Of a stretch of 64,000 nucleotides of DNA, positions 3,207 through 64,000 are shown one piece after another (the stretch's first letter is position 1; every line of letters starts with the position of its first letter). The notes below the pieces were generated by a model, which was given only the letters and a program-made list of their open reading frames with translations, ran no database searches and was not told where the DNA came from. A program made the translations under genes and the position numbers. Source of the stretch: a virus (taxonomy: Duplodnaviria; Caudoviricetes); IMG/VR virus record IMGVR_UViG_2919414237_000001, positions 3,338 to 67,337 of that record; one strand, 5' to 3'.

Positions 3207-3617
3207 TTAAACCGCAAACTCACGGTAGTTAACCGTTAATTTAATATCGGTTTTATTTTGTACGGATTGACCTGACGGCGAAACAACCTTCATCCAAAAC
3301 GGCTTTCCTGTGGTATCTCCGCTTCCTGCCGCTCCAATATTTGCCATTGTGAGTGCCGCTCCTGCTGCGCCGTATGTTCCGGCTACTCCTGCGTTATCTG
3401 GCGCAAGGAATACCCAAGTGGATTCGTCTGTGCTGACGGCATCAGTCGGATCAATATTCACGTTCTGATAATATTTCGTCGCATCGTTATTAAACAAGTA
3501 CAACTTTTGCTCGACGGTTGAACCGGTAATCGGATGCTGCGTGCTAATCGGATTCGAATTGTCTCCCGTTGATACTACGTCAGTAAGTCCGCTATTCTTC
3601 GAAATTTTCAATGCCAT
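3207..3617 (-). CDS. Hypothetical beta-rich, probably structural, protein
   Basis: GGAGG RBS; T/G/V/N-rich composition. Confidence 0.75.
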   Translation of the reverse strand: MALKISKNSGLTDVVSTGDNSNPISTQHPITGSTVEQKLYLFNNDATKYYQNVNIDPTDAVSTDESTWVFLAPDNAGVAGTYGAAGAALTMANIGAAGSGDTTGKPFWMKVVSPSGQSVQNKTDIKLTVNYREFAV

Positions 3618-24453: not shown

Positions 24454-25536
24454 TTATAAATAACTTGGCTTTTTACCGACCGCTGCTTTCGGTCTTTTTA
24501 CGGCTTCAACTGCCATATTTAATGCGTCAGGTCCGTCATCATGCCAGCGCGAACCGTAGCGCTCAAAGTGCTCGAGCAAAATTGCATGATCTCGATTAAA
24601 TACGATGTTTCCGTTTTCTATGTCGGGCAGCATCGCCTCGATACGGAGTTCTTTCCGCTGGCGTTGCTGAATTTTCTTTACGCGATTATGTGCCGGATAG
24701 CCGACGAACTGGAGCGCTTCTTTCAATTTATCAACGAAAAACTCTTGCGCCATTTGTGCTTCAGCGCCAATAATGTCCGGCTGGTACTCTTTAACTTTGC
24801 GCGTTATGATTTCAAGGAATTTATCCGGATGCAAGCGCTCGATAAACGCATCCACTACGTATGTCTTCTTCGTAATTTTATGCTTAGCGACGGTCACTAG
24901 CGCCGAATAGTCGCCCTTCTGTTTACCCATCGCAAAATCGAGTCCCATTCCGATATAGAAGTCCTTATGCGAAAATGTCCGCCCGCTATCGTAGTAGTAA
25001 AACCGATCCGGATGGAATATTTGCGACTCTTCGTCGAGTGGGTTATTCATAAATTCCGTATTGAACGCCTTGGACCCGTAGTTAACCTTTTCGAGAAATA
25101 AATTCGTTAACGGGAATCGGTCGGGCCATAACACTTTCGCCCCTTCGTCCATTGCTTCGCGATTTTCTTCGTAAAAGTTAAGCGCCGCTCTTGCGTTAGA
25201 CGTGGCCGTTTCTTCTTCCGCGTTTTCCATTTCGGCAAGCTCCGCCTCGGTCGGCTGGTACTCTTTATAGATGCGCTCAAACTCCGCCCAAAGGTCCATG
25301 CGTTTAGGCCATTCGATAATTGCCGGGAATTTATTCTTAATAAAGTCGCGACGTTCGGTAAGTACGTAATTAAGCAAGGAATCGACATGCACTAGCGTTC
25401 CCATAAAGATAACGGCTGTCTGCGTTGGATCATATGCCGGCATTAAGTCCTGGTTAAGCCAGTCTTTCGCTTTCTGACGGAGCTCGGGCGTATTATTAGA
25501 GTCCCGCGACTCCAAGTCATCGAGTAAGATTAAATC
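24454..25536 (-). CDS. terL: Large terminase, exon 2 (Walker B and nuclease domain)
   Basis: DLILLDDLE, FMGT, EFMNNP, DFAMG, HDDGPDA. Confidence 0.92.
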   Translation of the reverse strand, partial: DLILLDDLESRDSNNTPELRQKAKDWLNQDLMPAYDPTQTAVIFMGTLVHVDSLLNYVLTERRDFIKNKFPAIIEWPKRMDLWAEFERIYKEYQPTEAELAEMENAEEETATSNARAALNFYEENREAMDEGAKVLWPDRFPLTNLFLEKVNYGSKAFNTEFMNNPLDEESQIFHPDRFYYYDSGRTFSHKDFYIGMGLDFAMGKQKGDYSALVTVAKHKITKKTYVVDAFIERLHPDKFLEIITRKVKEYQPDIIGAEAQMAQEFFVDKLKEALQFVGYPAHNRVKKIQQRQRKELRIEAMLPDIENGNIVFNRDHAILLEHFERYGSRWHDDGPDALNMAVEAVKRPKAAVGKKPSYL

Positions 25537-25794
25537 CATTCCGTTCTATCAGCGCAGTTTAAACGCTCTCTCCGCTTTTCCATCGTCGGAGTGTCGGACT
25601 ATATCTTCACCGTCGTCTTTACGTTACGGTGGGACGCTTTCGTGGAGGTTTCTGCGTTTCTCGCTTACCGCCTCTAGTCTCTACACCTTCCGCACATTCC
25701 TGTACGGCTTGGCTCGGTATTAGCCGTTTATGGAGGCCTTCACCGAATTAACGCCCTCTAGTTACGAAGTTTCCAACGTAACGCCCAATTTAAT
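25537..25794 (-). ncRNA. ORF-less group I intron (258 nt) in terL
   Basis: 5' exon ends in U, intron ends in G; P (AAUUCGGUGAA), Q (AAUACCGAGCC), R (UGUAGAGACUAGA), S (AAGAUAUAGUCC); P10 AUUAAAUU pairs with exon GAUUUAAU; splicing restores QRP|DLILLDD. Confidence 0.93.
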
Positions 25795-26475
25795 AGGCCT
25801 TTGTGAACCATTTCTAAAACCACGAATTTGCGTTCCGAGCGAAGTTGCTTCCATCTTAATATTCGTCGTCGTTAAAAACGCCTCTTCGCTGTCCTTCTCA
25901 TTTCGCGTTTTCTGTTCGTGCAATAAGACGCCAAAGTCTTCGCGAAGTTTAAGGTTATATTTCAGTTGGCCGGCGACCCATTTTATGAACTTCTTTGACC
26001 CCGCGTTTGTTTCCGAAATAATGAGGATCATTTTCCGCTTGCGAAACGCGATTTCATGAACCGGAAAGGCATTCGATAGGTATGCGGATTTTGCGTGTCC
26101 CCGGCTGGCCGCCCATGCAATACGTGCCGTCCTGTTACGATTCGATACTGCGTCGAGTATCCGTGAAAGTTTAACGTGAAAGTCGGGCGCATCATCCATG
26201 TCAACGCGACTAGTCGGTACGAGGTTATCCGGATTGCCCGGGTTCCGCGCTTCCGAAAAATATTCGTAAAAGAAGTAAAGCATATCGACTTCGGCACGAT
26301 GTACCCGCTTGAGTCGTGTTAACTCCGCTTTATCCGTGCGGAATGTTTCGATATGATAGTCGGTTGCTTTTCCGGACTTAATTGCGGAAGCTAATTTACG
26401 AATGCGTTCCGTTAATAAGTCGATGCGTTGTTGCCGTTGGTCGCGCGTTATCCATTCGCCGTTTACCATCGCCAT
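25795..26475 (-). CDS. terL: Large terminase, exon 1 (ATPase, Walker A region)
   Basis: ASRGHAKS; GTQIRGFRNGSQRP; 227 codons in frame with exon 2 after splicing. Confidence 0.92.
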
Positions 26476-38573: not shown

Positions 38574-41500
38574 TTACAGCCCGCACTTTAGTTGAGCGCC
38601 GCAGTTACTGCACGTATTGCAACCGCCTGCGTCAATGATTTCGCCTTTTCGGCAAACCGGGCAAGTTTCGCCCACCTCGTTGCCATAAGTTACGTCAGTC
38701 GAACGAATTTCATTAATCGTGTCGACAAGAACGACTTTCGGTGATTCGACTTCGGTATCTTCAAACGTATTCTCTTCCGCTTTTAATGAAAGGACCTGCG
38801 AATCACGCGAGCCGTCGACATAAACCGTTCCGCCTTTTGCTCCACCTCTATATAAGCGCTCATAAACAGCCTCTACTTGCTCGACAGCATAACCTTTCGG
38901 AGCATTAACGGTTTTACTTAACGAAGAATCAATCCATCGCTGAATAATACACTGAACGTCAACGTGAGCCTCTGGTGATAGTTCCATCGCGCTGATGAAC
39001 CAATGCGGTAAATTAGATTTGTCTACGCCAGGGTTTGCGTCAAGATATTCTTGAACGATCTCCGCATTGACTTCCATAAATTTACCGAGTCTACCGCTAC
39101 GGAAGTAAGAAAATGAGAAGTACGGCTCAAGTCCGGTACTACATCCGACCATCGAACCGGTGCTTCCTGTTGGTGCGACCGTCAATAGGTGCGAGTTACG
39201 GATTCCGTGCTCAAGTACGCCTTGACGGATATCTTCCGGCATCTTCTTCATATAACCGGAATTAATGAATAGTTCGCGACCGTTTTCCAAGTTATTAAGG
39301 AACGGGAACGGCCCTTTTTCTTTCGCGAGTTCAATTGATGCGCGATAACCGGTAGTCGCCATAACTTCGAATACTTTATCGACGATTCCATTTCCACGTT
39401 CACTGCCGTATTCAGCTTCGCAATAGATTAGTAGATCGTGTAAACCCATAACACCCATGCCTAAACGACGCTCGCCTAGCGCTTGCTTCGTGTTTTCTTC
39501 CATGAAGTATGGAGTTGCGTTGATTACGTTATCCATGAAGCGAGTACCGATTTCGACAACGCGTTTTAAGCGGTCATAGTCGACTTCTTTCGTTTCTTTG
39601 TTCGCCATGTTAGCGAGATTGACTGCCGCCAAGTTACAAACGGAATAAGGCGCTAGAGGCTGCTCTCCACATGGGTTAGTTGCTACGACCTTTTGACCGT
39701 AAGACACTGCGTTAGTCATTTCGTTAGCGTTATCGATAAAGAAGATGCCAGGCTCGGCACTATATGTTGCGCAAATATTAATCAGATTCCATAACTCTTT
39801 CGCTTTGATTGTGCGGTATGTCTTAATTCCGAAACCAAGCGCTTCCCATTCGCGAACATCTCCGTATTCATGCCAGTTATCGTTATAAAGCGCCTTGTCA
39901 TATTCGCTGTAATTTTCGATGTCTGGGAAACGCATCTCATACTCCGTACCATTCTCGACCGCATCCATAAACTCTTTCGTAATGGCAACGGAAATATTTG
40001 CACCGGTTAAGAATTCCGGATTGTTAATGGAATAAGTACCGCCATCTGCTAACTTTTGTTGCGCTTGCTTTCTCGCTGGCCCATCCGGCAAATGCATCGC
40101 AGAAGTTTCATAAACTGCTTTTTCGTCCGGAGTTAATGGCGTGAATTTTAGCTTTGCTTGCGCCAATCTACGAATCTCTTCATCGTTTGTATTTTCGACT
40201 AAGAATCGAAGAATACGAGGATTCTGCATTTTCGAAATAATAAAGTCGAGAATATCCGGATGCCAATCCGCAAGCATAATCATCTGAGCTCCGCGTCTTG
40301 AACCGCCCTGCTCGACTAAGTGTGTTAATTTCGCAATATCATCGAGCCATGAAACGGAGCCGGACGACTTTCCGTTAACACCTTTTGCAATAGCGTTTTT
40401 TGGACGCAACGTTGATCCATTTGTACCTACGCCACCACCGCGCGACATGATTTCCATCACTTTATTGCGGTGCTCTCCGATACCTTCGCGTGAGTCTTGC
40501 GGATAAGGCATAACGTAACAGTTTGATGTTAAATATCCTGTTCCAATAACAAATGAATGTGTTTCTGGTTCTTCGCAACAGAATACTTCTTCGTTGTATC
40601 CTAATGGTTTAACTGATATTACATCAATGTTTGTTCTTCTAGCTAAAGGTGAAGACGTAAACTTTTCATAGTGTGATTGTTTGATTAAGTCACTTGCTGC
40701 GATAGTTGATTTAATTAACTGTAAAGCATAGCAAGGTGAGTAATCTCCGTTGTATGGATTTAACTCTCTTGTCATACGAATATCAGAATGTACAAAAGGT
40801 GTTCTATATAAGTTATCAGCAATGCATTGAAGATCTTCTTTGCTTGACTGATGAATCATTACTGAACCACGTTCATCGCATGATCCGTCTGTTGCGATTA
40901 ATCCTACAACAAAACCATACCAATAATCATTAGATTCTGATTCCGAAGGAAGTTCTTTAAAATGTTTTGGCAATCCATACACTCCTACATAATCTCCGTT
41001 GTAGTGAGGCGTGACTGTATAGTTGCCAAAGAATTCAGCTAATTGTTCTTTTTCTCCGTGAAGGAGAACCATTGTATGAGAACCGTTTTCTAATGTTCCA
41101 TCTCCGTAAACGACGCCGTGTTGGATGCCTTTTTTGTATTCTTCGGAATCACCTAATCGTAAATGTTGACCAACAACAGGTATTTTCTGTCCTTCTAATT
41201 CTAAAGTAGTCACTTTGATGTAATTAGATTTTTTTCTATCATATGTGTACCACTCATGGCCTGCTGTTGTTTTGATCTTTTCGCCGTTAGCGAATTCTAC
41301 TTCATATAACTCTTGAATTCCAAACGATTTAAATTCAGCTTTTCGAATTATGCCATCCATTGAATAAACTTCATATTCGCCTTTAAGGTCTTTGATTTTT
41401 TGTGGGCCGTAGTAAGCTGTTTGAACGATGGTATCCCCTGCAAAGCAGTTAAAATATGTTACGTCAGTCTCCGACCCAGCTCCGTAAATGACGCGACCGC

Positions 41501-42002
41501 CTGGCACGAAGTCAAGCGACGATAAAATTTCGTAGAAATCATTGAACGCCTGCTCTCGTTTTGCTTCGTCAGTTTCAACCGCCGCCAGTCCTCGCGCATT
41601 CCGTTTCGCAATTTGCTCGTAATAGATTTCGAGTGGTTTGTCAATAATATCTAACGGACGGGTCACGATGCCGGTCGCAAGTTCCTCCGCATCTTCAAGA
41701 ACTCCGACAAATGACTCGTCTAATTTAACGCTGGCTTTACGTTCAGTCCAATCAATTGCGGTGATATAGCCGTAACCGCGCGCAGGAAATTTCGGATCAG
41801 TTTTAACCGTCAGCACAACGAAGTCGCCGACTTTTAGCGTTTTCTTTTCCGTATCCTTAAATGTGTATCGGTCGAGCATGATTAGGCGTGATACTCCGCT
41901 AAATGCCATTTTCATATCGTCTGTAACCGGAAACACCTGCTTAAATTGCGCAATATCCTCGTTTAATTTCGCTTTTAATTCGTTAGTGTAAGTTGTAGTC
42001 AT
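38574..42002 (-). CDS. nrdJ: Class II (B12-dependent) ribonucleotide reductase with intein
   Basis: PGGR, MSRGGGVG, RRGAQM, TNPCGEQ, CNLAAVNL, VAPTGS, C-terminal CPVC...CSNC; no small-subunit gene present. Confidence 0.92.
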   Translation of the reverse strand: MTTTYTNELKAKLNEDIAQFKQVFPVTDDMKMAFSGVSRLIMLDRYTFKDTEKKTLKVGDFVVLTVKTDPKFPARGYGYITAIDWTERKASVKLDESFVGVLEDAEELATGIVTRPLDIIDKPLEIYYEQIAKRNARGLAAVETDEAKREQAFNDFYEILSSLDFVPGGRVIYGAGSETDVTYFNCFAGDTIVQTAYYGPQKIKDLKGEYEVYSMDGIIRKAEFKSFGIQELYEVEFANGEKIKTTAGHEWYTYDRKKSNYIKVTTLELEGQKIPVVGQHLRLGDSEEYKKGIQHGVVYGDGTLENGSHTMVLLHGEKEQLAEFFGNYTVTPHYNGDYVGVYGLPKHFKELPSESESNDYWYGFVVGLIATDGSCDERGSVMIHQSSKEDLQCIADNLYRTPFVHSDIRMTRELNPYNGDYSPCYALQLIKSTIAASDLIKQSHYEKFTSSPLARRTNIDVISVKPLGYNEEVFCCEEPETHSFVIGTGYLTSNCYVMPYPQDSREGIGEHRNKVMEIMSRGGGVGTNGSTLRPKNAIAKGVNGKSSGSVSWLDDIAKLTHLVEQGGSRRGAQMIMLADWHPDILDFIISKMQNPRILRFLVENTNDEEIRRLAQAKLKFTPLTPDEKAVYETSAMHLPDGPARKQAQQKLADGGTYSINNPEFLTGANISVAITKEFMDAVENGTEYEMRFPDIENYSEYDKALYNDNWHEYGDVREWEALGFGIKTYRTIKAKELWNLINICATYSAEPGIFFIDNANEMTNAVSYGQKVVATNPCGEQPLAPYSVCNLAAVNLANMANKETKEVDYDRLKRVVEIGTRFMDNVINATPYFMEENTKQALGERRLGMGVMGLHDLLIYCEAEYGSERGNGIVDKVFEVMATTGYRASIELAKEKGPFPFLNNLENGRELFINSGYMKKMPEDIRQGVLEHGIRNSHLLTVAPTGSTGSMVGCSTGLEPYFSFSYFRSGRLGKFMEVNAEIVQEYLDANPGVDKSNLPHWFISAMELSPEAHVDVQCIIQRWIDSSLSKTVNAPKGYAVEQVEAVYERLYRGGAKGGTVYVDGSRDSQVLSLKAEENTFEDTEVESPKVVLVDTINEIRSTDVTYGNEVGETCPVCRKGEIIDAGGCNTCSNCGAQLKCGL
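40521..41447 (-). mobile_element. Intein (309 aa) with LAGLIDADG endonuclease
   Basis: TYFN|CFAGDT ... GYLTSN|CYVMP; block B TTAGHEW; motifs GVVYGDG and GLIATDGS. Confidence 0.93.
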
Positions 42003-49659: not shown

Positions 49660-50325
49660 TCCTTTTCGGTTAATATTCGAACACCGGATAATTCCCGCGC
49701 CCGCTAGCGACTACTTACGGCGGAGTGACTTCATGACCTTTCGGCAATGTTTCCGCATCTCCAAATTCCGCTAAGAATGGCGACGGCTGCCTGTTCCGTC
49801 CTCGTAAGTAAATCGCTAGCCGACGCAGGCTTAACGGTACTTTCCGTTAGTCGTCCGCGAAAATGGCTCACGAACAACCGACGGTGTCCAAGGATATCTC
49901 GGACCTTCCCGTTTTCCTGCGAAGGTTATGGCCGCTGGCGGATTGCTCCGCTAATTAAGGTAAAATGTCGCCCTAACCCGTTTCATCAAGCGACTTGCGC
50001 GGTGCCCTCGCTAGTTAGCCGGCATCATTTCATCACCGCGTTCCCTGAGTAAGACGCATAAATTTGTTAGGCAGTGGCTTCGGAAGGAATCCCGAAACTG
50101 GATATATCACAGTATGTTTTTGTCGCCCCCTGCGCGGGATTACCGGACTACCCTCCGATACAAGCGATTTGTTCACCTTCGCTTCAGGCCGGGTCATCCG
50201 CCCATGGTCGCTTCGAAAGTCGCCAAGTCCTGGACGGTGGGCCGGCCGTTACGTACAGTCAGCTTGCGTCAGCGCTTTTGTTCGAAGCGTTCACGGACGG
50301 GCGATAATTGAATCGCCATCCATTC
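49660..50325 (-). ncRNA. Candidate large structured RNA or leader upstream of ssb
   Basis: No credible ORF; 25-bp helix with minus-strand G-U pairs, at least 8 other hairpins, GNRA loops. Confidence 0.6.
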
Positions 50326-50495
50326 GTTTATTTGCGTGTGCTGTCGTAAGTTGTGCCGTAAAATTTCACGTACATCGCGATCATCTGCTTGCGTTTAACC
50401 TCAGCGATGCTTATTAATGCGCCCATCATTCTCGACCTCCTCGATTTTACAAACTCCGTACATGACGTATGCAATAAACGCGATAGCTACGATAT

Positions 50496-50663
50496 TCAAT
50501 ACCATCCCGGCTTCACCGCCTTAATCGGACGGAGGCTGACACGCTCGTTCTCTCCGTCGCATAAGCGGATTGGATCGTGTTGCAACCGCTCAATCTGCCG
50601 CTCAACTAACGTATTCTTTTCGGATTGTTGTGCATAATATTTATTAACGGTTGAATTTTTCAC
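50496..50663 (-). CDS. Small hypothetical protein (55 aa), first of three micro ORFs down to ~50330
   Basis: GGAGG with GTG; downstream ORFs coupled. Confidence 0.5.
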   Translation of the reverse strand: MKNSTVNKYYAQQSEKNTLVERQIERLQHDPIRLCDGENERVSLRPIKAVKPGWY

Positions 50664-50795: not shown

Positions 50796-51407
50796 TTAAA
50801 GCGCAACTAAGAAATCGGAATAGTCGCCGTATTTTTTAGAATCGAATTTGCCCGCCAGGCGTTCGAGTGTGCGTATTACAGTAGAGTGGTGTAAACCGAG
50901 AACCTTCGCAATTGCCGTTGCGGTAGGCTTCGGATGTTGAAGGAATTCATTAACGACGCCAATCGTTTTTGCATCCGCATCGCTCAGAAGATAGTCGATC
51001 AGCGCCAACTGGTCGGCTTTTTTCTTTGCGGTAATAAAATCTTCGAGATTGAATTCGTCGGCGATTTCGAATGCCACTTCGGAACCGTCATCGTTTTCAA
51101 CTGGTGCTGCGTATACTTCGAATTCGGACAGTCGCTTTTTCTTTCGGTAGATGTCGTTGCGTTTGAAGCGAATGCTACGATTGAGCATGTTGATGAAATC
51201 CGCTCGACCGTCATACTTTTCGATGCAACTCATCAAAGTGTCTTGGTAGGCTGCGATGACTTCGTCTTTACTCGCCCTGATCGATTTGCCAACCGTTTCA
51301 AGGCTGCGCCAGTTTGCGGATACCATTTCGTAGATCTGCGTGAACGTTTCGTCACTTCGATCGTTTTGATACTTCAGCACCAGGTTATTAAGTTGTTGGT
51401 TATTCAT
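50796..51407 (-). CDS. Phage RNA polymerase sigma factor (sigma-70 family)
   Basis: Region 2-like YQDTLMSCIEKYD...FINML; region 4 HTH TATAIAKVLGLHHSTVIRTL. Confidence 0.8.
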   Translation of the reverse strand: MNNQQLNNLVLKYQNDRSDETFTQIYEMVSANWRSLETVGKSIRASKDEVIAAYQDTLMSCIEKYDGRADFINMLNRSIRFKRNDIYRKKKRLSEFEVYAAPVENDDGSEVAFEIADEFNLEDFITAKKKADQLALIDYLLSDADAKTIGVVNEFLQHPKPTATAIAKVLGLHHSTVIRTLERLAGKFDSKKYGDYSDFLVAL

Positions 51408-51624: not shown

Positions 51625-51654
51625 AAAAAACAAAAGGCAGCCACGATGGCTGCC
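51625..51654 (-). terminator. Intrinsic terminator after aimP
   Basis: GGCAGCC-AUCGU-GGCUGCC followed by UUUUGUUUUUU. Confidence 0.8.
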
Positions 51655-51689: not shown

Positions 51690-51827
51690 TCAACCGCCGA
51701 CTTTATCTGAGAAAAGGATAAACCCTCCAACCTTGTCGCTAGCAATATCTTTGCCTCCGTGACTAAGCACTAATGGAACAACGATGATGGCTGCTGCGAT
51801 TAAAACACCTAATAAAATTTTCTTCAA
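51690..51827 (-). CDS. aimP: Arbitrium pro-peptide AimP (45 aa)
   Basis: MKKILLGVLIAAAIIVV signal peptide; C-terminal SDKVGG twice; TTG start after AAGGGG; directly after aimR. Confidence 0.85.
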   Translation of the reverse strand: MKKILLGVLIAAAIIVVPLVLSHGGKDIASDKVGGFILFSDKVGG

Positions 51828-52983
51828 ATTTAACGTCCCCTTTAATTTCAATTTTGATTTTAATGAAGTCATCGACTAACGCTGATGTTTCTCCAAGCTT
51901 CTTAGCTTCTCTAGCCGCAATACTGGCGAATAAATAGTTAGATTGCTTGAAAAAATAACGTCTGCATTCGTGCATCTTTTCTAAAGAGTTTCTTGCGCAG
52001 GCTCTTAATAAGACTAAAAAATCATCTTCGCCCTGTTGAAAAATCGCCTCCTTCAGTAGTTTTAATTCGAATTCGCTACCCTTATTGTTTTGCAGTCGTA
52101 GTAGTATCGGATCAGAATCTGCATCTAGCTTGAAGTTTAAATAAAGTTTAGCGTAATCCAAGTTACGTCGAGCCATTTTTTCTATGCTGGGCTCTCCGAG
52201 TGTTTTGGCGATTTCGTATCTTATTCGAAGATTTTCGATACACTCGTTTCCATCTTCGGACAAGTACGACATCCCCACTATATCAAACGCACCAGAAACT
52301 GTTTTCGCGCATATATTTGCATTAATAATTAATGAAGCATAATAACGCGCAGATTCAACATCGTTAAAATGCACGCTAACATGGCCAAGTAATTCAGCAA
52401 TTCTATGTAAGTAACTTTCTTTGATGAATAAATGCCTATCATTAAATTGATAAACCAGTTTCTCAGCTTCTTTTGCTGTTTCTAATATTAAATGATACTT
52501 TTCGAAATAATAATAGTTATAGCACTTGATGATATCAGATAAAATCGCCAATTCTCCGGCTAGCTGCCCTACCTTATTCAACCTACTTACGATATCCTTG
52601 GCGCCGATTTCATCTGTATAAAAGTCGTAAAGTATTGAGTAAACTGCTACGTACTTTGAAACAGTTTTATCATTTGCGTATAAATCAATTAGTTGTTTTA
52701 ATACTTTTTTATTGCGAGTTATGGAAGCATACTCGAAGCTTTGCTTGATGGATTCTGTGGTATTTATACGCAAGCACCAGTTTGCCATAATTTCTTCTTG
52801 ATTATCCGGAAAAAGAACATACGATAATCTAAGGAGTTTACGAAAACTAAGTCCTCCTTTATTATTAAGGAAGCGAGATAATTCTTGTTTAGTACAACCA
52901 ATGAGTTTTGCGACTGTTTCAATATTCAAAGTGTCATGATCTTCAATAAGGTTGTAAATCTCTTTAGAAAGTGCGTTCACCAA
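51763..52983 (-). CDS. aimR: AimR-family peptide receptor
   Basis: N-terminal XRE HTH (VAKLIGCTKQELSRFLN), IKQSFEYASITR, TPR-like helical body, followed by a secreted peptide. Confidence 0.88.
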   Translation of the reverse strand: MVNALSKEIYNLIEDHDTLNIETVAKLIGCTKQELSRFLNNKGGLSFRKLLRLSYVLFPDNQEEIMANWCLRINTTESIKQSFEYASITRNKKVLKQLIDLYANDKTVSKYVAVYSILYDFYTDEIGAKDIVSRLNKVGQLAGELAILSDIIKCYNYYYFEKYHLILETAKEAEKLVYQFNDRHLFIKESYLHRIAELLGHVSVHFNDVESARYYASLIINANICAKTVSGAFDIVGMSYLSEDGNECIENLRIRYEIAKTLGEPSIEKMARRNLDYAKLYLNFKLDADSDPILLRLQNNKGSEFELKLLKEAIFQQGEDDFLVLLRACARNSLEKMHECRRYFFKQSNYLFASIAAREAKKLGETSALVDDFIKIKIEIKGDVKFEENFIRCFNRSSHHRCSISA

Positions 52984-53089: not shown

Positions 53090-53302
53090 ATGATAGACTT
53101 TTCTCCTCTCCACAAAACACTAGAAGAAAAGAATATGGTAATTAGTGATATGCGTGATAAAATCCTTCATCCTAAGACCATCGCAGCAATAAATAAAAAT
53201 AAAGACGTCAACCTAAGCACAATCGAAAAGATTTGCTTATTCCTTGACGTCCCCATTGAAAAAGTTGTCCGTTTTATTCCGGACGGCTCCAAACAAAAAT
53301 AA
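53090..53302 (+). CDS. Cro/CI-type HTH regulator
   Basis: FSPLHKTLEE; VNLSTIEKICLFLDVPIEKVV; start at 53090. Confidence 0.85.
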   Translation: MIDFSPLHKTLEEKNMVISDMRDKILHPKTIAAINKNKDVNLSTIEKICLFLDVPIEKVVRFIPDGSKQK

Positions 53303-53327: not shown

Positions 53328-53549
53328 CTGATTACGGTCGGAAGGTGCTTGCTACAAGATCGGCTCGACGAAATCGGAATGTCGCAAGTCCAACTAGCGG
53401 AGAAAATCCGCAAAACTCCGTCCTACATATCGGACATCGCCAACGGACGCCATACCCTTTCGCTCAAGAACGCCAAACTAATCGCCGATGCAATCGGATG
53501 TCACATCGACGACCTATACGAATGGCACTATGTTAGCAAGCACCGTTAG
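53328..53549 (+). CDS. XRE-family HTH regulator
   Basis: MSQVQLAEKIRKTPSYISDIANG; GAGGTG RBS suggests a CTG start at 53328. Confidence 0.85.
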   Translation: MITVGRCLLQDRLDEIGMSQVQLAEKIRKTPSYISDIANGRHTLSLKNAKLIADAIGCHIDDLYEWHYVSKHR

Positions 53550-62380: not shown

Positions 62381-62440
62381 GTAGAATTATAGTTTACTTC
62401 ATGTGTAGTGGCGATTATAATACGTGTAGAGGTGAGTTGT

Positions 62441-64000
62441 ATGAGTCGTCCTACGGACCAATCAATTTATATTTATTTACGTAAGAGCCGCAAAGATATT
62501 GAAGAAGAGAAAAAAGCTGTTGAAACGGGCGAAACTTTCGACACCCTTGAACGTCACCGTAAAACACTACTTTCAGTTGCAAAGAAAGAACGACACACCA
62601 TCGTTAAAATATTCGCTGAAGTTGTGTCGGGCGAATCCGTGACAGAGCGCCCTGAAATTCAATTTTTGTTGCGAGAGTTAGAGATTAATCCAGTTGATGC
62701 GGTATTAGTGATGGACCTAGACCGTCTAGGACGTGGCGATATGCTCGATCAAGGATTACTCGACAGAGCATTCCGGTATTCTGGAACGAAAATAATTACG
62801 CCGACCGAGATATACGACCCTGCGTCCGAAACTTGGGAATTAGTTTTTGGTATCAAGTCGCTAGTCGCCCGCGAAGAATTAAAAGCCATCACGCGCCGTA
62901 TGCAACGAGGCAGAGTTGCTTCAGCTAGTGAAGGTAAGTCAATTAGCAAGGTTCCTCCGTATGGGTATAACCGTAATGAAAATTTAAAACTTAAGCCCGA
63001 TCCGGAAACAGCGTGGGTCGTAAAGAAAATGTTCGAAATGATGCGCGACGGGCATGGTCGCCAATTTATTGCGCAAGAATTAGACAGGTTAGGAATTAAA
63101 CCACCAAATCCTAAACGAAAAACTTGGTCGCCGAGTAGCATTACCGCAATAATTAAGAACGAGGCTTACATCGGTTCGATTATATGGGGACAAGTCGATT
63201 ATGTTAAACGAAACGGTAAATACCAAAAAAAGAAACTGCCTCGAGAAAGGTGGACCATAAAAGAAAACGCTCATGAACCGCTAGTGTCCCGTGACCTATT
63301 CGAAGCTGCTAATAAAGCACATTCGGGGCGGTGGCGCCCTTCTACAGTGACCAATAAACGACTCTCTAACACATTAGCCGGCATATTAAAGTGTGAAATA
63401 TGTGGGTATACAATGATGTACCAGCCACGCCCTGATCGTCCTCATGATTTTATAAGATGCACGCAACCAGGCTGTAAAGGCGTACAACGCGGAGCGACTT
63501 TTGAACTGGTTGAAAACAAAATAATAGAAGCATTAGAAAAAATGTATTACGAATTAGTCGATATAACCCATTCGGATGACCCTACAGAAAATACGGATAT
63601 TCCATATAAAAGGGTATTAATTGAAAAGAAAAAAGAAGAAGTGTCAGCATTAAAAATACAAAAAAGTAACTTACATGATTTTCTCGAAAGAGGGATTTAC
63701 GATATAGATACTTTTATGGAACGACAAGATAATTTAGTTAAACGTATTGACACATTAAGTAATGAAATTCACACCCTTGAAGACGAGATAGAAAGAGAAG
63801 AATCTCGCAATTCTGTAATAGATCAATATTTACCAGAATTAAAAAACGTTCTTCAGGCTTATTCCGAAACAGAGGATGCAGAGCGAAAAAACGCATTATT
63901 AAAAACAGTAGTTGAAAAAGTTACTTACTTACGAAAAACAGATTGGCATAGGCGCGAAGAGTTTGAAATCCAAATTTACCCTAAGTTTAGGCCGTCATAG
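62441..64000 (+). CDS. Large serine recombinase (integrase)
   Basis: YLRKSR, EVVSG, DLDRLGRG, PPYGY, LAGILKCEICG Zn ribbon, coiled coil; GAGGTG RBS places the start at 62441. Confidence 0.95.
   Translation: MSRPTDQSIYIYLRKSRKDIEEEKKAVETGETFDTLERHRKTLLSVAKKERHTIVKIFAEVVSGESVTERPEIQFLLRELEINPVDAVLVMDLDRLGRGDMLDQGLLDRAFRYSGTKIITPTEIYDPASETWELVFGIKSLVAREELKAITRRMQRGRVASASEGKSISKVPPYGYNRNENLKLKPDPETAWVVKKMFEMMRDGHGRQFIAQELDRLGIKPPNPKRKTWSPSSITAIIKNEAYIGSIIWGQVDYVKRNGKYQKKKLPRERWTIKENAHEPLVSRDLFEAANKAHSGRWRPSTVTNKRLSNTLAGILKCEICGYTMMYQPRPDRPHDFIRCTQPGCKGVQRGATFELVENKIIEALEKMYYELVDITHSDDPTENTDIPYKRVLIEKKKEEVSALKIQKSNLHDFLERGIYDIDTFMERQDNLVKRIDTLSNEIHTLEDEIEREESRNSVIDQYLPELKNVLQAYSETEDAERKNALLKTVVEKVTYLRKTDWHRREEFEIQIYPKFRPS

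Follow-up and report, generated by a model that had tools for sequence, protein, structure and literature searches.

The window analysed here, a stretch of 64,000 nucleotides from a virus of the Caudoviricetes (positions 3,338 to 67,337 of IMG/VR record IMGVR_UViG_2919414237_000001), encodes on its minus strand an arbitrium receptor, AimR, followed by a precursor peptide, AimP, in which the hexapeptide SDKVGG occurs twice, once internally and once at the C-terminal end. On balance, we regard it as likely that this AimP is a double-dose arbitrium precursor carrying two selected, identical signals, with the internal copy predicted, by analogy, to be released and active. The evidence comes from related precursors, in which the two copies are kept identical and change together, and from a phage Rap-Phr pheromone of the same layout whose two copies are both matured.

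The aimR-aimP pair and its doubled hexapeptide

The receptor gene, aimR, spans 51763..52980 (-) and encodes 405 residues from a GTG codon at 52980 (an alternative start, TTG, lies at 52983), with the stop codon at 51765-51763. Its product combines a helix-turn-helix (HTH) at the N-terminus with a TPR-like domain. It reaches 229 bits with the NCBIfam equivalog NF038310, lysogeny_AimR (cut-off 70), and 97.6 bits with Pfam PF22871 (cut-off 26.7; E 1e-27), and matches the solved arbitrium receptor structures 9f36 and 7q0n with E-values of 4e-14 to 9e-13. Having passed the family models, this large minus-strand gene is a genuine aimR, and the arbitrium aimR-aimP pair proposed in the initial annotation is confirmed by NF038310, by PF22871 and by the solved AimR chains. 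The receptor shares about 40% identity with the AimR of Wbeta-like phages and about 24% with those of phi3T and SPbeta.

Directly downstream of aimR lies a small gene for a precursor with a Sec signal, as is typical of arbitrium systems. This gene, aimP (51690..51827, -), consists of 45 codons and a stop; it begins with TTG, continues with Lys-Lys and a hydrophobic Sec-type signal, and ends with a pro-region. The ribosome-binding site, AAAGGGGA, is found at 51836..51843 (-), 8 nt before the TTG and inside the aimR coding sequence, where it coincides with Lys-Gly-Asp codons of aimR. The same arrangement, AAAGGGGA or AAGGGAGA together with TTG-AAG-AAA, is common to most of the related loci, and a longer reading of 60 residues from an ATG at 51872 was rejected, the ribosome-binding site with its TTG-Lys-Lys start being the conserved one. 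The 65-nt overlap between the two genes (51763-51827, -), which covers the last ~21 aimR codons in another frame, is likewise a feature of the family: the C-terminal tail of AimR (consensus ...FEENFIxCF...SIxA) overlaps the start and the signal peptide of AimP. Such a long overlap probably keeps gene callers from annotating aimP; only five relatives were present in a protein database of 5.8 billion sequences, and the peptide encoded in the window was itself recovered in the protein search, as P0002.

The pro-region reads ...KDIA-SDKVGG-FILF-SDKVGG-stop. The internal hexapeptide (copy 1; 51723..51740, -) follows KDIA and is encoded by AGC GAC AAG GTT GGA GGG; it is separated by the four-residue spacer FILF (51711..51722, -), which has a bulky hydrophobic residue at both ends, from the C-terminal hexapeptide (copy 2; 51693..51710, -), encoded by TCA GAT AAA GTC GGC GGT. 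Copy 2 is located where the mature arbitrium peptide canonically lies, and the TGA stop (51692-51690) comes directly after it. The initial annotation, which had described SDKVGG as encoded twice with all six codons different, proved exact in coordinates and codons on the minus strand, and its placing of both copies outside the aimR overlap agrees with the position of the aimR stop at 51765-51763. A repeat arising by chance, roughly estimated at ~1e-5 for an exact six-residue repeat in a 45-residue peptide, was rejected because the repeat recurs in orthologues.

Relatives, codon differences and history of the duplication

Loci carrying relatives of AimR were gathered from viral, genome and metagenome collections and the small ORF at the 3' end of aimR was taken; further AimP sequences were then added by profile searches with the AimP alignment. 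A homologous small ORF was present at the aimR 3' end in 70 distinct AimR-AimP pairs, and nearly all of these peptides end in GG. In four of the 70 pairs (the window, L001, L002 and L024) the terminal hexapeptide recurs unchanged inside the precursor; to these the profile searches added two more precursors with identical pairs, P0108 and P0109. Within the clade of KVGG-type peptides the identical pairs consist of SDKVGG twice in the window, L001 and P0108, SEKVGG twice in L002, and ADKVGG twice in P0109, the spacers in these four relatives being of four to five residues. The AimR of L001 is 84% identical to that of the window and the AimR of L002, from Bacillus sp. AFS073361, is 68% identical. 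Other members of the KVGG clade carry a diverged, GG-ended internal module (L088, P0113 and L078), or have a single copy or a visibly shortened internal remnant (L003, L004, P0110, L010, L011 and P0112, with decayed copies in L010, L011 and P0112). Neither a tblastn search of plasmids with AimP nor a scan of genome contigs with the single protein returned a match, and a sample of 400 genomes from the order yielded two distant matches only.

Variation in the five identical-pair precursors of the KVGG clade falls mainly outside the hexapeptides: all nine linker and spacer columns are variable, as against four of the 12 columns of the copies (hypergeometric P about 0.002, from a manual count). 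These four columns are position 1 (S/A) and position 2 (D/E) of the hexapeptide, altered identically in both copies. The pattern is that of the Phr105-type pheromones, with peptide segments more conserved than flanks and spacer, and with substitutions within the copies that are synonymous except for the paired changes. The spacers of the relatives read FVTPY, MMTPF, IVTY and LVTQY, and their first residue is always F, M, I or L and their last F or Y. The residue that precedes the copy is Ala or Val for the internal hexapeptide and Phe or Tyr for the terminal one, and what comes next after the internal Gly-Gly is in every case a bulky hydrophobic residue (the KVGG clade has F, F, M, I and L there, and L024 has I).

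Both copies had been proposed to be under purifying selection, and this was upheld by the five precursors, in which the copies are identical, flanks and spacer vary, and the S/A and D/E changes are paired. Judged from these comparisons, the identical amino-acid sequence is maintained by selection acting on each copy, since in the three lineages for which DNA is at hand the copies have long been separate and conversion has not homogenised them. The covariation of the two copies is suggestive but statistically not strong, the changes being conservative (D/E and S/A) and the independent lineages few. A survey of homologues had been put forward as a check on the duplication, and its outcome is divided: five precursors, the one in the window included, keep identical copies, but in sister lineages the internal copy has diverged or decayed and is dispensable there. 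The internal copy is thus not essential to the system, because it has diverged in L088, P0113 and L078 and decayed in L010, L011 and P0112.

The complete recoding of the repeat is less informative than had been supposed. In the window, copy 1 and copy 2 differ in six of six codons and at 8 of 18 nt, all synonymously. Two independent encodings drawn from the codon usage of the prophage are expected to differ in 3.95 of six codons, with a probability of 0.07 that all six differ, and the copies of the orthologues differ in 5/6 (L001) and 4/6 codons (L002). The claim that the recoding is noteworthy in itself was therefore not sustained; the six-codon difference is explained by old, saturated synonymous divergence, given a P of about 0.07 and the 5/6 and 4/6 of the orthologues. 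On the same figures (3.95 expected, 0.07 for all six), active recoding to avoid DNA repeats found no support.

The codons do, in turn, date the separation of the copies. In the window, L001 and L002 the serine codon of copy 1 is AGY and that of copy 2 is TCN; in the terminal copies of clade members Ser is always TCN, and an Ala or Pro residue is encoded by GCT or CCG. Since AGY and TCN are not interconvertible by one synonymous step, the copies have been separate since before the split of the window, L001 and L002, a depth corresponding to 68% AimR identity. The copies within each of these three precursors differ at 6-8 of 18 nt, all synonymously, and pairwise comparison of the orthologous copies gave 17 synonymous codon changes, the sole non-synonymous one being the paired D/E change. 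For the window, L001 and L002, gene conversion was rejected on the 6-8 differences per 18 nt and on the AGY and TCN codons shared by orthologues; the codon-level test covers these three precursors, P0108 and P0109 being known as proteins.

The MAFFT alignment and the codons are consistent with a 30-nt unit, coding for a four-residue linker and the hexapeptide, having been duplicated in tandem in an ancestor shared by most KVGG clade members, and the spacers of L002 and L011 still show traces of the linker (x-T-A). The clade comprises 8 AimR rows in the AimR tree, with an SH-aLRT support of 100, and the forms with identical duplicates are placed on two branches: the window and L001 are sister to L010, with its decayed internal copy, and L002 is sister to L088, with its diverged module. 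The placements of L010 and L088 imply that retention, divergence and loss each happened repeatedly. A further duplication was found in L024, an IMG/VR contig that groups with the B. cereus-type members of the AimR family, where a 10-residue unit ending in EIKPGG occurs twice (1166-1315, +) and the duplicate units show 3 synonymous differences in 27 nt. As read from these units, the duplication in L024 is independent and recent, and such duplications keep arising. No doubled EIKPGG was found in cultured phages, the only match being to phage Booya, which has a single copy.

Prophage setting and neighbouring genes

Its gene content identifies the window as a temperate siphovirus-like prophage, with genes for a tail protein, a tape measure protein, a major head protein, a portal and a terminase, together with a DNA polymerase, a primase, a DnaB-like helicase and a methyltransferase. 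A nucleotide search against cultured phages gave no match. An arbitrium system is expected in a temperate phage and next to a lysis-lysogeny switch, and the window has structural, replication and integrase genes, with Cro/CI-type HTH genes beside aimR. The prophage boundary is probably marked by a large serine recombinase gene (62408-64000, +; PHROG integrase, E 9e-102), which extends beyond the window. The host is a soil relative of Bacillus with a genome of 5.4 Mb, which shares a genus-level group with Bacillus sp. AFS073361 and a family-level group with Mesobacillus zeae.

Two genes of the prophage have an unusual structure. The match of the 361-residue terminase large-subunit ORF to its PHROG profile is confined to the C-terminal part (profile positions 404-711 of 760), and a separate ORF lies immediately upstream (24454-25539, -, and 25762-26475, -), so that the gene may be split or interrupted. 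The ORF of the ribonucleotide reductase large subunit (38574-42002, -) is 1142 residues long with a profile match from residue 491 on, and may contain an intein or be extended at its N-terminus.

Past the aimP stop, at a distance of 35 nt, lies a hairpin that resembles an intrinsic terminator (51626..51654, -), with an 8-bp stem of which 6 pairs are GC, followed by a T-run; a similar hairpin follows aimP in L001. About 230 nt beyond the hairpin is a gene of 203 codons (50796..51407, -) in the position that aimX has in SPbeta phages. Its product is sigma-like, with a weak full-length similarity to ECF-type factors (TIGR02937, E 1e-4, at 21.8 bits, which is below the cut-off), and Pfam and PHROG gave no match for it. 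A tblastn search found a homologue in 54 loci, three of them by partial match, and in nearly all of these it lies ~230-550 nt past the end of aimP. By this positional analogy the 203-residue protein is the probable, putative regulated output of the module. Its identity to the window is 81% in L011 and 49% in L001, and the AimR proteins show the opposite order, with 67% in L011 and 84% in L001 (L010 was also compared): the receptor-peptide pair and the downstream gene have recombined as separate modules.

Upstream of aimR, and divergent from it, is a small gene of the Cro/CI-type HTH family (53090..53302, +; Pfam HTH_26, E 3e-7) with a probable ATG start at 53090, conserved in L001 in the same position. 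A second small gene of the switch region (53349..53549, +) encodes a Cro/CI-like HTH_3 protein (Pfam, E 1.5e-14) that falls among the transcriptional repressor families of PHROG.

Downstream of the sigma-like gene, the stretch 50199-50647 shows 77% DNA identity to L011, as does its second half (50503-50647) to L004 and L012; the neighbouring proteins are far more diverged than this DNA. A large structured RNA was rejected, given a folding z of 0.07 and thus no unusual stability, and the stretch probably holds conserved small genes and not a structured RNA. A skipping-rope RNA (49712-49810, -; Rfam RF02924, 51.3 bits against a gathering score of 36.7) sits between a phrog_6883 gene and a stretch of ~1 kb with small ORFs alone; no match to it was found in L001.

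Candidate maturation of the precursor and relation to known systems

In the mechanism that we propose, AimP would contain a maturation unit of 10 residues, made of a four-residue linker and the hexapeptide, duplicated in tandem. Following Sec export and removal of the signal peptide, host extracellular proteases would cut before each SDKVGG, with P1 being Ala at the internal copy and Phe at the terminal one, and a second kind of cut would fall between the internal Gly-Gly and the hydrophobic residue that opens the spacer. In this way each precursor would give two identical hexapeptides, which would be re-imported and bind AimR, and the higher signal-to-receptor ratio would lead to lysogeny at a lower infection density. 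The internal copy may be freed at a slower rate or conditionally, since its release takes an extra cut of a different kind. Gly-Gly followed by a hydrophobic residue would suit a thermolysin-type neutral metalloprotease, and a cut after Gly-Gly is a poor one for proteases of the subtilisin type.

That both copies have tracked the changes in the signal is the best reason to regard the internal copy as a ligand of the same kind as the terminal one. A rival reading is that the C-terminal copy is the only signal, the internal one being kept as a recognition or docking element for the maturation protease or for export, or as an uncleaved pro-form in competition for uptake by Opp or for binding to AimR. 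The characterised arbitrium peptides are all C-terminal (background knowledge; PMC8878798), several relatives function without an intact internal copy, and freeing that copy takes an unusual cut after Gly-Gly; nevertheless, a processing element need not follow the S/A and D/E changes of the terminal copy so exactly, and in Phr105 both copies are matured and the immature fragments show no productive receptor binding (PMC11343458), so we consider this explanation unlikely. An improbable variant is that two different products are made, the terminal hexapeptide and a longer internal species that retains spacer residues or the upstream Ile-Ala, their differing affinity or kinetics providing a two-speed signal or an agonist with a modulator. 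Such an outcome would accord with the residues before the copies, which consistently differ (Ala or Val internally, Phe or Tyr terminally), and with Phr3T, which yields two non-identical products of different affinity and cooperativity (PMC11343458), but active flanks should be conserved and the flanks are the most variable part of the precursor, and the strict identity over six residues argues for the same ligand.

It is also conceivable, and in our view very improbable, that the identity of the copies is a functionless by-product of recurrent duplication or of gene conversion, that is, of concerted evolution. Intragenic duplication does recur, as the young L024 with its 3 synonymous differences per 27 nt indicates, and P0108 and P0109 are compared as proteins, without DNA; against this stand the 6-8 differences per 18 nt between the copies of the window, L001 and L002, and the AGY and TCN codons shared by orthologues, which exclude conversion since a split at 68% AimR identity. 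The double-dose reading can be extended to the clade as a whole, which would then form a natural series of signal diversification by intragenic duplication, in which the internal copy, where it has been kept, is freed by a different host protease and gives a protease-gated, two-speed signal reading both host state and infection density. We put this extension forward tentatively and consider it rather doubtful; if true, the phage would read the physiological state of its host besides the infection density.

Arbitrium is a model of virus-to-virus communication, and the tuning of its dose-response and the origin of new specificities are the questions that the doubled precursor addresses. The KVGG clade offers precursors with two identical copies, with two different modules or with one copy, and three alleles that were changed in both copies, and it is suited to testing whether copy number sets the threshold for lysogeny and whether duplication precedes a change of specificity. 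None of the arbitrium papers in the library searched mentions KVGG, and experiments on an AimP with a doubled peptide were not found; a preprint of 2025 only speculates that arbitrium diversifies via duplication, like the Rap-Phr systems.

The system shares with the arbitrium of phi3T and SPbeta the receptor family, a C-terminal hexapeptide signal and a location in the switch region of a temperate phage, but it differs in its AimR (~24% identity) and in its peptide, those of phi3T and SPbeta being of the xxxRGA type and released from a one-copy precursor, without a sigma-like gene downstream. In phi3T and SPbeta aimR and aimP are not known to overlap, and the output is aimX. In the related loci of the B. 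cereus type that were examined, aimP has a TTG-Lys-Lys start at, or overlapping, the aimR 3' end, and many have a homologue of the 203-residue gene downstream. They differ in having the terminal hexapeptide once per precursor (L024 excepted), in a peptide that ends in PGG instead of VGG, and in hosts of the B. cereus group. The Wbeta-like arbitrium (EIKPGG/TIKPGG; Stokar-Avihail 2019, in the account given in PMC8878798) belongs to the same AimR clade, at ~40% identity, and uses a peptide of the xxK-x-GG form.

The initial annotation had presented the doubled peptide as a departure from the canonical single one, which overstated the case. A survey of RRNPPA systems reported the mature peptide in multiple copies in AimR, NprR, Rap and PlcR propeptides, with repeats in 3 of 11 atypically long AimR propeptides (Felipe-Ruiz, Marina & Rocha 2022, PMC9765709), and the doubled pheromone of phi105 was dissected in 2024 (PMC11343458). 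The layout is thus already known from phage Rap-Phr systems, and from the survey's mention for AimR-type propeptides, and the gain made here is incremental. The survey differs from the present analysis in that it dealt with atypically long propeptides only and gave no evolutionary or functional analysis of AimP repeats; the 45-residue AimP, being of normal length, falls outside its scope, and the available part of the supplementary text of PMC9765709 contains no KVGG-type peptide. The pseudo-repeated Phr3T, from a Rap system of phi3T, resembles the L088, P0113 and L078 precursors, which have an internal, GG-ended module unlike the terminal peptide and of putative activity.

The nearest counterpart is Phr105, from the Rap-Phr system of Bacillus phage phi105, which carries two identical ERPVGT hexapeptides with a four-residue spacer (Felipe-Ruiz et al. 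2024, PMC11343458). The two have in common a phage-borne RRNPPA propeptide with identical internal and C-terminal hexapeptides and a four-residue spacer, and in both families conservation is higher in the pheromone segments than elsewhere in the propeptide, with relatives that have identical repeats, pseudo-repeats or single copies. They differ in the receptor, which for Phr105 is a Rap and not a DNA-binding AimR, and in the output, which is host sporulation and competence signalling and not lysis-lysogeny. Rap proteins lack a DNA-binding domain, and the receptor of the window, with its N-terminal HTH, is an AimR; the module is therefore laid out like Phr105 yet is not a member of the Rap-Phr systems. 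Release of both copies as active pheromone, shown for Phr105 and Phr3T only (PMC11343458), is experimental there, whereas for the AimP of the window we infer it. Extracellular proteases mature both copies of Phr105, the terminal one being processed by many and the internal one requiring WprA, and the immature fragments are inactive; it was proposed that the duplication provides a higher pheromone-to-receptor ratio and an extra regulatory layer (PMC11343458).
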